DNA of 64,000 bases from Octopus sinensis. Taxonomy: Eukaryota. The DNA is taken from the NCBI RefSeq assembly GCF_006345805.1, contig NC_043003.1, positions 113,088,001 through 113,152,000 on the forward strand, read 5' to 3'. The notes beneath the pieces were generated by a model, which ran no database searches, was not told the DNA's origin, and saw only the letters and a list, made by a program, of their open reading frames with translations. The position numbers and the translations under genes were made by a program. Below are positions 7,716 to 58,454 of the stretch, piece after piece. Numbering within the stretch: position 1 is the first letter of the stretch; each line of letters opens with the position of its first letter.

Positions 7716-7910
7716 ATACCTATTTCTTTACTACCCACAAGGGGTTAAATATAGAGGGGACAAACAAGGACAGACAAACGGATTAAGTCGATTACATCGA
7801 CCCCAGTGTGTAACTGGTACTTAATTTATCGACATCGAAAGGATGAAAGGCAAAGTCGACCCCGGTGGAATTTGAACTCAGAACATAACGGCAGACGAAA
7901 TACGGCTACG
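7716..7910 (-). mobile_element. SINE family B (headless body unit)
   Basis: Reverse complement of the 184-bp unit at 29211, including the gaaataggtat unit junction. Confidence 0.85.
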
Positions 7911-7911
7911 C

Positions 7912-8779
7912 ATACGACGTAGTCAAACATTAGCACCGCCAGTTCAAATGTGGTCGGACATCGGTCGAAAGTGCTTCTATTCCTGGACGACCAAATTCCG
8001 CCATTGATGATGACACCATCCATAAAATGGAAGCCACCATTTTGGTGGATCGCCACATGATTATTCGGCCACCAGCCCAAGAAGTGCGGATAAGTGTAGG
8101 GTCAGGGGGAAAATTATTCACGACTATTTGCACATGTGGAAGTTGTTTGAACGATGGACTCCCCGGATGCCCACACATTTTCAGAAGCAGGAACAAGTCA
8201 ATTGCTCCCAGGCTCTTTTGGCAATGTGCCAAGAAGACGAGGAGGAATTTTTCGGCAAACTTATCACACACGTTAAAACATATGTCCATCACTATGATCC
8301 TGAGACTAAAAGCCAGTCGAAGCAATGGAAGACTGACATCTCACCTCTTCCAAAGAAAGCTCATGTCCAAACCTCAGCAGGCAGGGTGATACTCAGTCTT
8401 TTGGGACCAGCGCGGAGTAGAGATGATGGATTTCCTGGCAAAGAGCACTACAATTAACTTCACCGCTGCAGAGAAGCAAAGAGGCCTGACCTGCTAACCA
8501 AAAGGGTCCACCTTCTTCAAGACAACGTCCCAGTTTATAATGCGCAGCACACTCCTGCGCTATAAAATCCTTCCTCATTCTCCTTGCTCTCTCGACCTCG
8601 CATCATCTTCTTTCCACTTCTTTCCAACCATGCGGTCTTTTCTGAAGCGGAAGCATTTCGAGGTAAAATCTTAATTCCAGAAGCAACCTACTGATTTCTA
8701 CAGACGAGGTCTTCACAACTGCATAAAGCAATATGAGAGGTGGGTCACCATTGGTGGTGGCTATGTAGAGAAGGACTAA
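7912..8779 (+). pseudogene. Decayed mariner transposase
   Basis: Across frames: RQFKCGRTSVE..PGRP, YVHHYDPETKSQSKQW, PKKAHVQTSAGRV, LLQDN, SLDLAS (YSPDLAP-like), ends GGYVEKD-stop; many stops and frameshifts, TIRs not recognisable. Confidence 0.85.
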
Positions 8780-22460: not shown

Positions 22461-23224
22461 TCCAACACGTAGGATATTGTGTGTATGTATACATACAATG
22501 TTTACGATAGAGTGAGTTTAAGTGTGTGAGTATGTGTGTGTGTGCATGTGTGTCTGTCTGTCTGTACGTTTGTCAGTGGTATATATCAGACACATGTGCA
22601 AACGACATTTGAAAACTGGTCAGGCGGTATCAGTTCGAATGAATTCCGTTGCGTTGAGTGTTCAGTTCAAGTTGCGAAAATGATTCCATATTCTTTCGAC
22701 TGGAGAGACGCTGATTCAGTGATTAGAATTTTGAATACTCGAAAGTAACAATTCTATTGCAGAGAAAGTATGTTATGCCGTAAAATAACCACAGAGTTGG
22801 CCCAAATAACTGTACCGTATCCCCATTCTGAAATCATTATGAAACGCATTACATAAAGCACTCATTTGAAAAAAGATTAAATCCACAAAACGCCTGTCGC
22901 TCATTCTGAAAATAATTTTCAACATTTGATTAGTTCTTCGCTTGGGTTAGTGCCCAGAATATTCGGTTTACGATCGTCAGGTCCTGAGCTCGAGTCCTAG
23001 TGGCCTTTGTGTCCTTGAGCAAACATATATATGTGTGTGTATGTGTGTGTTTGTGTGTGTGTGCATGTGCTTGTATGTACAATTAAATGTAGCTCTAATA
23101 GTGTAAACGACATCGGCCACATATACATAGCATTCGCGTGACCAACAATATATATATATATATATATATACGTTAAATATTTGCTAAATATTGGCTAAAC
23201 TGGCAAAATGGCCATTCCGAATAT

Positions 23225-23289: not shown

Positions 23290-23557
23290 TCTACCGGATC
23301 CGACCATGAGTGTTCCAATGGATGCGATCAACCGAACAATTTACTACTGAAGTAAGTGGTTTAGCGCTCGACAGACACGCGTAACCTTCGCGCAGATCTC
23401 CGGGAGATTCTGCATGTTACAAATCTCGCCCTATTAATTACAGGTAAAACTTATTTCAGTGAGCTGGACCAACAAGAAATAAAGTGTTTGCTCAAGGACA
23501 CAAGGGCCACTAGGAATCGAGCTCAGGATCGTAAGCCGAATATTCTAGGCACTAACC
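23290..23557 (-). mobile_element. Degenerate tRNA-headed SINE related to family E
   Basis: gagctggaccaacaagaaataaagtgtttgctcaaggacacaa...ggaatcgagctc matches the 5' half of the 26130 element; 3' half differs. Confidence 0.6.
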
Positions 23558-23559
23558 CT

Positions 23560-24000
23560 TATTGTCTGTTTCCTGTCCTGTTTCTTTATTTGTACTGTTT
23601 TTTCTTCATTTGTATTGTTTGATTTTCATTTGCATTGCTTTTACTTCCTGTTTTTTGTCACTTGTTTTACTCCTCTGCAAAAGAATTTTATTTAATTCCT
23701 TTTGCAGGAAGGGCTGCTTCGACTGTGTTCTGTCCTTACCTTCGAAACACACTTTGAGTCGAACCAGGGACAGCTGATGAAGGGGAATTTTCCTTGTATT
23801 GTTTGTCCTGTACTCTGTTTTTTCGTTGTTTTAAAAAAAGTCCGTTTCCTTGTTTGAATTTATGTTCTCGTCTCTCGTTGTGTTCTACGTTTATTTGTGG
23901 TGTCCTGTACTCATATATATATATATGTATGCATGTATATATACATTTAGATGTAAGTATGTACATATATGTATGTATATATGCATATATTTTATTTATT
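23560..24000 (+). repeat. Interspersed repeat family F copy 1 (probable Penelope-like terminus; carries hammerhead core segments)
   Basis: Colinear with 57940-58450: T-rich lead, gcaggaagg..gaaacac..gagtcgaac..gacagctgatga, two tgtcctgtactc motifs, TA-rich end. Confidence 0.8.
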
Positions 24001-24023
24001 TATTATATTACTATATATATATA

Positions 24024-24054
<31 letters not shown>

Positions 24055-26129: not shown

Positions 26130-26473
26130 TGTTGTGATTTTTGTTGTGACCCCCTTCGGTCATGATACTGACCATGGGCTTGCACCTAGAAAGTTATCCT
26201 CCCAGGCACAAGTCAGGGCAAGGTTGTTTATGGAAGATCAGCAGTCACCCATGCATACCGGCCTCCTCTCTCCACGCCACCAGTGTTATCCAAGGCAAAA
26301 GCCGATACAGCTTGGCACCAGTGACGTCGCAACTCATTTCCACAGCTGAGTGAACTGGAGCAACGTGAAATAAAGTGTCTTGCTCAAGAACACAAAACGC
26401 ATCCCGGTCCGGGATTCAAGCTCACAATCTCACGATCGTAAGCTCGACGCTCTAACCACTGAGCCATGCGCCT
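26130..26473 (-). mobile_element. tRNA-derived SINE, family E
   Basis: Minus strand aggcgcatggctcagtggttagagcg (A box)...ttgaatcccgg (B box)...tcttgagcaagacacttt; short AAC-type tail. Confidence 0.85.
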
Positions 26474-29163: not shown

Positions 29164-29760
29164 GGCGGCGAACTGGCAGAATCGTTAGCACGCCGGTCGA
29201 AATGCTTAGCGGTATTTCGTCTGCCGTTACGTTCTGAGTTCAAATTTCGCCGAGGTCGACTTTGCCTTTCATCCTTTCGGGGTCGATAAATTAAGTACCA
29301 GTTACGCACTGGGGTCGATGTAATCGACTTAATACCTATGTCTGTCCTTGTTTGTCCCCTCTGTGTTTAGCCCCTTGTGGGTAATACAGAAATAGGTATT
29401 TCGTCTGCCGTTACGTTCTGAGTTCAAATTCCGCCGAGGTCGACTTTGCCTTTCATCCTTTCGGGGTCGATAAATTAAGTACCAGTTACGCACTGGGGTC
29501 GATGTAATCGACTTAATACCTATGTCTGTCCTTGTTTGTCCCCTCTGTGTTTAGCCCCTTGTGGGTAATACCGAAATAGGTATTTCGTCTGCCGTTACGT
29601 TCTGAGTTCAAATTCCGCCGAGGTCGACTTTGCCTTTCATCCTTTCGGGGTCGATAAATTAAGTACCAGTTGCGCACTGGGGTCGATGTAATCGACTTGA
29701 TTTGTTTGTCTGTCCTTGTTTGTTCCCCTCTGTGTTTAGCCCCTTGAGGGCAATGAAGAA
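29164..29760 (+). mobile_element. SINE family B: one head plus three tandem 184-bp body units, single 16-bp TSD
   Basis: Units start ggtatttcgtctgccg at 29211, 29395, 29579; TSD acaacttgggtaaact (29146-29161) / acaactcgggtgaact (29761-29776). Core ctttgcctttcatcctttcggggtcgataaattaagtaccag resembles a Meta/Nin-type conserved SINE domain (from memory). Confidence 0.92.
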
Positions 29761-38441: not shown

Positions 38442-41141
38442 CACTGGTCAATGATTTTGGAAAAGTTGTGTGCTTCTTAAACGGGATTAGTTAATTCCTT
38501 TGTATTTTCAAGTCCTGAATGCAAATGTCACCTTGGAAATGCTTATTAGCAACAGGCTTCAAGATACAAGACATGCAATATTTGATTATTGTATTACAAC
38601 ATACAACACGTGTCATTATGTTTAAAGTCCTAGTCCGCATCTACTCCCTGCCTTTTTGCTTGGCGCTTATTGGAGGTTGAAGAATAATCTCTTGCCGATG
38701 CCCAAGCAAACATCGTTTTGCTCCACTTGCCCTTGTGCCGTTTGTCCATGGTTGAAATATCTTGGTGAAGCCCTTCACCATCTCCATTACTAATTGCTCT
38801 ACAGTTCGCTGGAAAAAGGTCTAAATGTGAGTCCAAGACGTGGATTTGACGTGACATGTTACATTCCATGTTCTTGTTAGCCTTGATGAGGTTTTCCACA
38901 AATCCTTTATAATTTCCGTCCCTTCTGTTTCCGAGAAATCCCTTCGCCACAAACTTGAATGCTCCCCAAGCAGCTTTCCCCTACCCATGAAGGGCTGATT
39001 CAAAGTCACCATCTTTAAGAAGCTCTCGAATTTGAGGACCAATGAAGACTCCCTTTTATCTTAGCGTCACTTAGTGGGGAGAATTTTGATGTTAAATATT
39101 TGAATCCCTGACCGGATTTGTCCATAGCTTTTACAAAGTTTTTCATGTGCCCCAGTTTTGTGTCGTGCTGGTAGCAAAATTTTGTTTGGTTCAGTGAGAG
39201 GTGGATGTTGAACGTTTTTCATCCCAGACTACATTGAGTGAAGAGGTAGCCAGTCTCTCCTGATACAGTGGTAACCTCTTGCACAGCTGTCCCAATCACA
39301 CAGAAAGCAGTGTATCCGCCCTGCAAGCTCATCACAAAAGCAACAGCCTTTAAGTCATAACAGAGCTGCCATTGATGTTCACTGTATTTTATGCATTTCA
39401 GCACAAGCGTTATATTCTCATAAGTTTCTTTCATATGAAATGCATAGCCCACAGGAACTGAAGATTCACTATTGACATTATGTAACAAGGCACATTTCAC
39501 TCAAATGTTTCATGAATCTATGAACAGCCTTCAGTGACTGGGTTCGTATTCAATATCTATTTCTTTATGTCCCACAAGGGGCTAAACATAGAGGGGACAA
39601 ACAAAGACAGACAGGGATTAAGTCAATTACATCGATCTCAGCGCGTAACTGGTACTTATTTAATCGACCCTGAAAAGATGAAAGGCAAAGTCGACCACGT
39701 CGGAATTTGAACTCAGAATGTAACGGCAGACGAAATACCTGTTTCTTTACTACCCACAAGGGGCTAAACACAGAGGGGACAAACAAGGACAGACAGACGG
39801 ATTAAGTTGATTATATCGGCCCCAGTGCGCAGCTGGTACTTAATTTATCGACCCCGAAAGGATGAAAGGCAAAGTCGACCTCGGCGGAATTTGAACTCAG
39901 GACGTAACGGCAAACGAAATACCGCTAAGCATTTCGCCCGGCGTCCTAACGATTCTGCCAGCTCGCTGCTCTTTTTATTCAATATCAAGTGCTTCCATCA
40001 GACCATTAATATTGTTGCAGGCCAATAAATCACCTTCCATTATGAAGAAATTGATGAACTGCTGCTGACGGTCATGAAATTTTGAAATCTTCACATCAGC
40101 TATTAGGATATTTCACGGTTGAAGACGAGAGCCTAGCAGCTCTGCCTTATTCTCAGGTAGTTGTAGACCCATGACAAGGTCATGGAATTCCCCTTGTGTT
40201 ATGCGATGTGGTCTATAGAAGTGTGTTTCATCAATATTTGGGATTACTCTGTAAATCCAGCAGTGTCACCTTTCTCTGCTCCCTCCGCATCACTTTCTTC
40301 ACGAAGAATACCGAAATTGGTGCATCAAGAACAGATTGACCATCTCCACGTGAAACTGGGTGAATAGCTAATGGAATGTTTATCTATTCAATGGACTCTT
40401 TTTCTTGTTTGACAAGACCTTTTTTAATGGCACTACCAGGCAGAAATAACAATCGTTGGTATGGTTTGTCGTCTCTTACCACATTATTGACACAACAGAA
40501 AACATTTCTTTCCTCTTCCTGTTCAACCATTGGCGAAGGTTAGTAGCACAAGTGTTGCAGCACATGCGAGGAGCCCACTTCTTATCCTGGTCTCCAATCG
40601 TGCATCCAAAATATAAGTGATTTGCTTTTCTAACCATAGCAGTTATACGGCGCTTCTGTGATGCAGAGGCCACAAATGTAGCAGAAGTTGTCTGTCTTAT
40701 TCACACAAGTGCGAGACATTTCGACAAAGAAAACGAGAAACAATTAGCAGATCAACAGAAAATTCGTTCATAAATTTACAGAGCATCACATCTTAGCAGA
40801 AGTGTTTATATCATTAATTAAAAGATAAAATTAATATAAAATGCCTCACATACATTTCGGTTACTTGCTCAATGAATATTTATTATAAGTTTTAAAAGGG
40901 TTTGACTAGAAAAATCACCTTTCACCTCAGCATATAAACTTGCACAGCACAACCACTGCTGGAACAATACTGAAGGGCAGTGGGACTGCCGTAAGCCTGT
41001 CGGGACTTGTTGTGACACGTATGTGTATCTTGAAAAGTAGAACTAACAAACAGTTTTAACCAAGGTATCCATTATCAGCGACCTAAAATTAGTTGGGAAT
41101 TGCTACTCTGGTCTAAAAAGCATTTTCGTTGTTGACCAGTG
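38442..41141 (-). mobile_element. Full-length Chapaev3-type DNA transposon, decayed transposase, interrupted by a SINE
   Basis: Termini cactggtcaa / ttgaccagtg with flanks tag / taa; minus strand YFGCTIGDQDKKWAPRMCCNTC..NHTNDCYFC (Chapa domain), HMKETYEN, DLKAV..LQGGYT, FLGN, IHVLDSHLDLFP..GEGLHQDI. Confidence 0.85.
39558..39975 (-). mobile_element. SINE family B dimer (head + two body units) with 11-bp TSD
   Basis: Same unit junction (gaaacaggtatttcg on minus strand) as the 29164 trimer; TSD tattcaatatc at 39547-39557 and 39976-39986. Confidence 0.9.
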
Positions 41142-57939: not shown

Positions 57940-58450
57940 TGTTTTCTTGTTTGTTTTCTTGTTTATTTTTATTTCTCGTATTGTATTTTCTTTTTATTTC
58001 TCGTATTGCATTTTCTTTTTATTTCTCGTATTGTATTTTCTTGTACATATATTTTATCTTGTATTTTATTTTGTAGTTTTATTTGTATCGTTTTTACGTC
58101 CTTTTTGTTACATTTTTTTCTTGCTTGTGTTTACCCCTCTGCGAGGTAATTTTATTTTAACTCTCTCGCAGGAAGGACTAATTTGGCGAGTCGTGTCCTG
58201 TCTTGCCTTTGAAACACTCTAGAGTCGAACTAGTGACAGCTGATGATAGGTAATTTTTCCTTGTGTAGTATGTCCTGTACTCTGTTTTTCTGTTGTAAAA
58301 AAATGGTTTTTCCTTTTTCGTTTCTCGTTGAGTTCTACGTCTAGTTGTGGTGTCCTGTACTCACGTATATATATTTATATATGCATGTATATATACATGT
58401 AGATGTAGGTACGTACATATATGTTTGTATGTATGCATATATTTTATCTA
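57940..58450 (+). repeat. Interspersed repeat family F copy 2
   Basis: Colinear with 23560-24000; T-rich lead has three tttttatttctcgtattg units. Confidence 0.8.
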
Positions 58451-58454
58451 TTAC

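Follow-up and report, generated by a model that had tools for sequence, protein, structure and literature searches.

A probable type-SGC hammerhead ribozyme core in a likely non-autonomous Penelope-like repeat of Octopus sinensis

Eckert et al. (2023; PMC10085705) divided the hammerhead ribozyme into three blocks, S, G and C, and validated type SGC in vitro. As described there, type SGC was found in virus-like metatranscriptome RNAs and in none of the genomes of known organisms, and a search of the paper's supplement returned 0 matches for Eukaryota or Metazoa. The published SGC ribozymes typically have a three-nucleotide linker between stem I and stem II and a fourth helix that closes block C and is needed for cleavage by SGC-3, and the HRIMA-1 rows of the same paper carry an extra base after A9 and, in several cases, U17. 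Other hammerheads close to the present case belong to Penelope-like elements (PLEs), whose pLTR hammerheads belong to type I, have hardly any stem III and are proposed to work as dimers (Cervera and De la Pena 2014; PMC4209133), and to non-LTR retrozymes, non-autonomous PLE derivatives that were defined and searched for by type I descriptors only, a kind of descriptor that would overlook an SGC family (bioRxiv 10.64898/2026.07.22.740005). A pseudoknotted frame around a hammerhead core is also known from the pistol-like pseudoknot hammerhead (PDB 8YDC; PMC11300833), in which, by its description, an added stem-loop gives rise to a pseudoknot in place of helix II, with no S-G-C rearrangement.

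In the window (the whole 64-kb stretch of O. sinensis DNA that was analysed), hammerhead blocks lie at 23724-23735 (TGTGTTCTGTCC), 23736-23751 (TTACCTTCGAAACACA) and 23768-23783 (GGACAGCTGATGAAGG), in the order UH > GAAA > CUGANGA, that is, S-G-C. Letters, coordinates and order are as given in a first-pass annotation of this DNA. The annotation took types I, II and III to be the only known arrangements, and the order indeed departs from the circular order of all three, but it is that of type SGC, which cleaves in vitro (PMC10085705). The core is complete in the window copy (C3 U4 G5 A6 N7 G8 A9, G12 A13 A14 A15.1 and U16.1 H17), and the predicted cut lies between 23729 and 23730. We consider it highly probable that this is a type-SGC hammerhead core in a likely non-autonomous Penelope-like retroelement, folding likely as a double pseudoknot and cutting the element RNA after 23729. 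Block order, the invariant core, covarying stems I, III and P0, the tandem and inverted layout of the copies and a pile-up of their 5' ends are seen directly. The features referred to below are as follows.

about 23544..24016, + strand: non-coding, likely Penelope-like repeat; a single 5'-truncated copy ending in (TA)n, without the optional 3' tail (placed by blastn against the tandem unit of locus L008 and by 3' ends; genome matches mostly begin at 23556)
23706..23712, + strand: 5' strand of the putative leader helix P-1, pairing with 23788-23794
23714..23723, + strand: 5' strand of P0, a helix that prolongs stem III on its outer side
23724..23729, + strand: block S, stem III strand TGTGT with U16.1 as its last base (23728), followed by U17 (23729)
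23730..23735, + strand: block S, stem I strand CTGTCC
23736..23739, + strand: crossover linker from stem I to stem II
23740..23751, + strand: block G, with stem II strand CTTC (C11.1 at 23743), G12 A13 A14 A15.1 (23744-47) and stem III strand CACA
23758..23767, + strand: 3' strand of helix P0
23768..23785, + strand: block C, with stem I strand GGACAG, core CUGAUGA (23774-80), an unpaired A (23781) and stem II strand GGGG (G10.1 at 23782)
23786..23808, + strand: segment able to fold back on block C (competing hairpin), containing the 3' strand of P-1
58052..58452, + strand: a further copy of the repeat, decayed and belonging to a different subfamily (C11.1>T, G10.4>T and an outer stem III mismatch)

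Complementarity of stems I and III stood as first annotated, whereas the agg/cct register proposed for stem II (37/43 family cells paired) gave way to one in which CTTC (23740-43) pairs with GGGG (23782-85) and A23781 stays unpaired (57/57). The single unpaired base after A9 restores the G10.1-C11.1 pair, a Watson-Crick pair that had been thought missing, and in this register the linker from S to G is 4 nt long instead of the 3 nt first supposed (3-6 nt in most rows, and about 3 nt in published SGC ribozymes). Stem II of the window copy is short and has two G-U pairs. A type-SGC descriptor (5-bp stem I, 4-bp stem II, 4-bp stem III and the core) had one match in the 64-kb window, at CUGAUGA 23774. 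Dinucleotide-shuffled sequence (200 shuffles, 12.8 Mb) had no match, nor had 400 kb taken arbitrarily from the genome. Rfam gave no hammerhead at the gathering threshold, and at E ≤ 10 over 23500-24050 it again gave no hammerhead and returned miRNA matches only, driven by microsatellites. Nested minimum free energy (MFE) folding of the motif yielded a z of 0.06, pseudoknots being beyond what nested folding can show.

For the repeat family, 165 distinct full-motif copies were compared, of which 139 fell into 15 clusters of at least two copies (families) and 26 singletons were left out. Across these 15 subfamilies the helices held: stem I was paired in 73/73 family cells, with both-side changes at 4/5 pairs; stem III in 66/69, with changes on both sides; and stem II in all 57 with the unpaired base after A9, with both-side change at one pair. 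The three stems adjoining the core are supported by covariation, strongly for stems I and III, while stem II is paired but weakly covarying. An additional old family, in which GAGUU pairs with AGCUC, has the identical stem II register, and the extra base after A9 is A, T, C or G depending on the family. Core letters differed in 0/191 family cells vs 171/1,118 in the flank, a comparison that is in part circular, since patterns that include the core had retrieved several of the copies. To remove this circularity, the first 30 of 2,725 matches from a flank-only search were examined; stem I was paired in 143/150 and stem III in 141/150 cells, the core deviated in 20/327 (6%) vs 27-33% at stem positions, and all 11 core letters were intact in 16/30 copies. 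In an alignment of 22 rows (7 singletons, the window copy and one medoid for each of the other 14 clusters), 87.9% of cells were paired and 14/18 counted pairs changed on both sides, a score reached by 0/500 shuffles, with slid controls at 35-52% paired; the rows are related, so these values are descriptive and not a probability, and the independence of paired changes rests on the family-level counts. Very old, low-copy relatives (L116:2960-3140 on the minus strand, L257, L259 and L109 near 3366 on the plus strand) have the identical block order and another stem II sequence, and are too decayed for scoring.

The U at position 17, raised earlier as a caveat, stands for the window subfamily but does not extend to the family at large, where 8 of the families have C at this position, 4 have A and 3 have U (C or A in 12/15). 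Hammerheads with U17 are slower. All three of C, A and U are permitted at this position (PMC12192606).

Outside stem III lies P0, a 10-bp helix (23714-23 with 23758-67) that is paired in 111/133 family cells, with both-side change at 7/7 counted pairs. It includes the ttcgac/gtcgaa pairing, which had been regarded as a possible competitor of the hammerhead and is instead part of this covarying helix. On its other side, block C may be closed by the putative leader helix P-1, which is paired in 84/92 family cells, is rich in G-U pairs and shows no both-side change. The published SGC helix linking both flanks of block C is absent, the flank-to-flank duplex being weaker than P0 in 21/22 rows. Sister families retain a hinge of 4-5 nt between P0 and stem III, which the window subfamily has lost, and this loss suggests that the window copy may be a poor cutter.

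The motif thus resembles HRIMA-1 and the other SGC ribozymes (PMC10085705) in its S-G-C order, two predicted pseudoknots, short crossover, intact core, unpaired base between A9 and G10.1 and occasional U17. In contrast to the single helix between the block C flanks described for those ribozymes, the strand preceding block C pairs here with a 5' leader (P0), and the one following block C may do so as well (P-1); the sequence of stem I is unrelated, and the published examples live in metatranscriptome RNAs whereas the present type sits in a repeat of an animal genome. Because the flank-to-flank helix of block C is absent, with P0 and possibly P-1 in its place, the window motif is a type-SGC variant and not a member of HRIMA-1, and its origin, judged from sequence, is likely independent of HRIMA-1/SGC. 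Unlike the type I pLTR hammerheads of PLEs (PMC4209133), it is non-circularly permuted and has a 5-bp stem III, but the extra base is common to both. Type I motifs of the same genome and the older SGC families also have a GCTC-GAAA stem II strand in common, and together the common base and the common strand suggest an origin from a type I pLTR hammerhead. What the motif has in common with 8YDC (PMC11300833) is the pseudoknotted frame around its hammerhead core. Minimal hammerheads of the ordinary type I kind occur in other repeat families of the same genome (L062 at about 1880-1940 on the minus strand, L175, and L142 near 1130).

The 361-nt neighbourhood of the motif had 3,796 candidates in the 2.72-Gb genome. 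Exact patterns in S-G-C order gave 941 and 1,620 genome matches vs 0 and 0 for reversed controls, an exact pattern for the G-C part gave 5,883 vs 59, and two further exact patterns (flank-only, and block C plus 3' flank) gave 2,725 and 2,509, with reversed controls at 0 and 0. No copy of the repeat occurred in 400 kb of arbitrary genome sequence (a positive control was run), suggesting fewer than about 20,000 genomic copies. At 29 loci of the window's subfamily, full units are about 770 nt long and occur with partial tandems and inverted truncated neighbours, and SGC-bearing copies also form tandems of 740-930 nt. The 3' ends stop at a fixed point or bear an extra tail, and adjoin (TA)n. Partial tandems, inverted copies with 5' truncation, a 3' end that is either fixed or extended by an optional tail, and microsatellite targets such as (TA)n are described marks of PLEs (bioRxiv 10.1101/2021.04.23.441226; PMC11167929), and the repeat shows them all; it is likely a non-autonomous Penelope-like retroelement. 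It is also like the non-LTR retrozymes (bioRxiv 10.64898/2026.07.22.740005) in its non-coding tandem units with one hammerhead each, a unit length within 51-972 bp and many solo copies.

No reverse transcriptase (RT) or endonuclease (EN) open reading frame (ORF) was linked in cis to the repeat in the loci examined (ORF scans, tblastn, flanks). RT-EN ORFs beside copies at three places (L006/L151, L026/L152 and L111/L153) were considered as the autonomous partner and rejected as separate insertions. A high-copy PLE of this genome shares only a short end motif with the SGC repeats and carries its own degenerate type I motif. This very high-copy autonomous Penelope-like element (L151:4582-6435 on the minus strand, L156-L184; 18,209 candidates) has an RT and a GIY-YIG-type C-terminus; its pLTR motif, TTGAAGA...GCTCGAAACGTT, is a type I hammerhead in which nearly all copies shown have U in place of C3, and the end motif that it has in common with several SGC subfamilies is TTTTATTTAT...CTGAGCGCC. 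The SGC repeat family was also found in sequencing runs under four organism labels, and contigs from runs guessed to be RNA contain it, although contigs cannot show ends or splicing. The 3' tail of the repeat unit (e.g., L129, L137 and L142) often ends in the splice-donor-like CCAA|GTAAGT (23/35 motif matches), and ahead of the ribozyme leader lies a pyrimidine tract with AG (window 23690-23707); the two could mark a retained PLE-type intron, although the contigs contained no spliced junction. Elsewhere in the window, pieces of another short interspersed repeat, at 22944-23025 (minus strand), 23485-23558 (plus strand) and 26349-26395, flank the 5' side of the element, and a repeat whose internal period is close to 190 nt occurs in both orientations, at about 90% identity, at 7716-7913, 29165-29727 and 39586-39969.

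The 5' ends of genomic copies were examined as a possible footprint of the predicted cut. Upstream extent of homology was mapped for 98 distinct copies, drawn from the first 100 of the 2,509 matches to block C plus 3' flank (all on contig C1) and including two inverted pairs that are not fully independent; 86 gave scored 5' ends and 12 were internal deletions or divergence, two of the copies being assigned by eye. Counted over 23 nt on each side of the predicted cut, 5' ends numbered 25/93 on the 3' side vs 2/68 on the 5' side (Fisher P = 3 × 10−5); per nucleotide they rose to 15/83 in the 12 nt leading up to the predicted bond and fell to 1/68 in the next 11 nt. Two 5' ends lie exactly at the predicted bond and most are 3-21 nt short of it; a partial copy from the window's own subfamily (L016) also starts at this bond. 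Such a pile-up is what cut templates would leave and suggests cleavage in vivo, and cut RNAs appear to have been used as templates. Reverse transcriptase that stalls at structured RNA could contribute further ends to the pile-up, yet such stalling predicts no sharp edge at the predicted bond.

In the mechanism that we propose, stem III would close a loop holding blocks S and G, and block C, held between P0 and the weaker leader helix, would pair into this loop to form stems I and II. A pseudoknotted hammerhead with a short crossover had been among the first-pass suggestions, and it finds support in the covariation and in the positions of the 5' truncations. Catalysis would be of the general acid-base kind, by G12 and G8, as in any hammerhead (PMC11300833). 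By this cut, tandem transcripts would be reduced to single-unit length and templates would acquire a defined 5' end, and the RT-endonuclease of an autonomous Penelope-like element would copy the trimmed templates in trans. Most dispersed copies, that of the window included, are probably inert truncated insertions that would cut only if read through.

It is also conceivable, though unlikely, that the core works only between two units, with S and G of one tandem copy meeting block C of its neighbour in a domain-swapped dimer. Copies do exist as tandems, the rod of P0 and stem III must bend back for a single-molecule fold, with the hinge missing in the window subfamily, and minimal type I hammerheads of PLEs are described as dimers (PMC4209133). 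However, stem III is here a full 5-bp non-palindromic helix, so the usual motive for dimerising is absent, and for HRIMA-1 and type SGC it is described that stem III is linked to stem I by as few as 4 nt in some rows and that single SGC units cleave during transcription (PMC10085705). Covariation fits the monomer and the dimer mode alike.

We regard as very improbable a functional fold made of block C and the downstream segment (a type I-like hairpin), with the upstream blocks regulatory or mere remnants and no cut at 23729. The hairpin, which block C can form with the next 25 nt (−14.9 kcal/mol and z of −2.5 in the window copy), dominates nested MFE folding of that copy (−30.2 kcal/mol) and has z ≤ −2 in 8/22 rows, and GACA/TGTC is kept in 64/71 and AGGG/CCTT in 54/56 family cells. 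Yet there is no GAAA downstream, changes in the stem I strand of block C are followed by the upstream partner and not by the downstream one, and the 5' ends step down at the SGC cut. Across families the hairpin shows no both-side change, which argues that the downstream segment is not a selected stem I partner; it is possibly an off-switch or a relic of a type I ancestor. Scarcely credible is an origin by chance or from two ordinary hammerheads (the latter also considered at first) whose dead, interleaved remains became fixed in a young repeat: copies within the window's own subfamily are indeed 92-99% identical over the motif, with almost no covariation, but the arrangement persists with unchanged core and paired changes in families differing at about 15% of flank cells, covariation that contradicts such remains, and the 12.8 Mb of shuffled sequence held no descriptor match.

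With the type-SGC reading preferred, the topology is already known; what appears new is its host, its copy number, the peripheral helices and the footprint that the predicted cut has left on genomic copies. A literature search (including PMC13725137 and PMC6962438) turned up no SGC hammerhead described from an animal genome or a retroelement, although subscription papers, repeat databases and bioRxiv supplements could contain one. Tentatively, and as a composite that we hold to be somewhat short of an even chance, this would be the first hammerhead of non-circular permutation to be found encoded in the genome of a cellular organism, having arisen independently from an ordinary type I pLTR hammerhead within a Penelope-like lineage of an animal, cleaving as a monomer caged by P0 and P-1, gated by a downstream hairpin that pairs with the core, and with its cut site stamped on thousands of insertions. 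Thousands of SGC copies in an animal genome would mean that a large class of genomic ribozymes escapes both Rfam and the standard descriptors for types I-III. The many dated subfamilies are material for the question of how a non-circular permutation of an RNA evolves, which is left open in PMC10085705. The role of the hammerhead in Penelope-like elements has been described as unclear (bioRxiv 10.1101/2021.04.23.441226), and the hammerhead is dispensable for PLE insertion in vitro (PMC11167929); the pile-up of 5' ends at the predicted cut bears on what that role may be.
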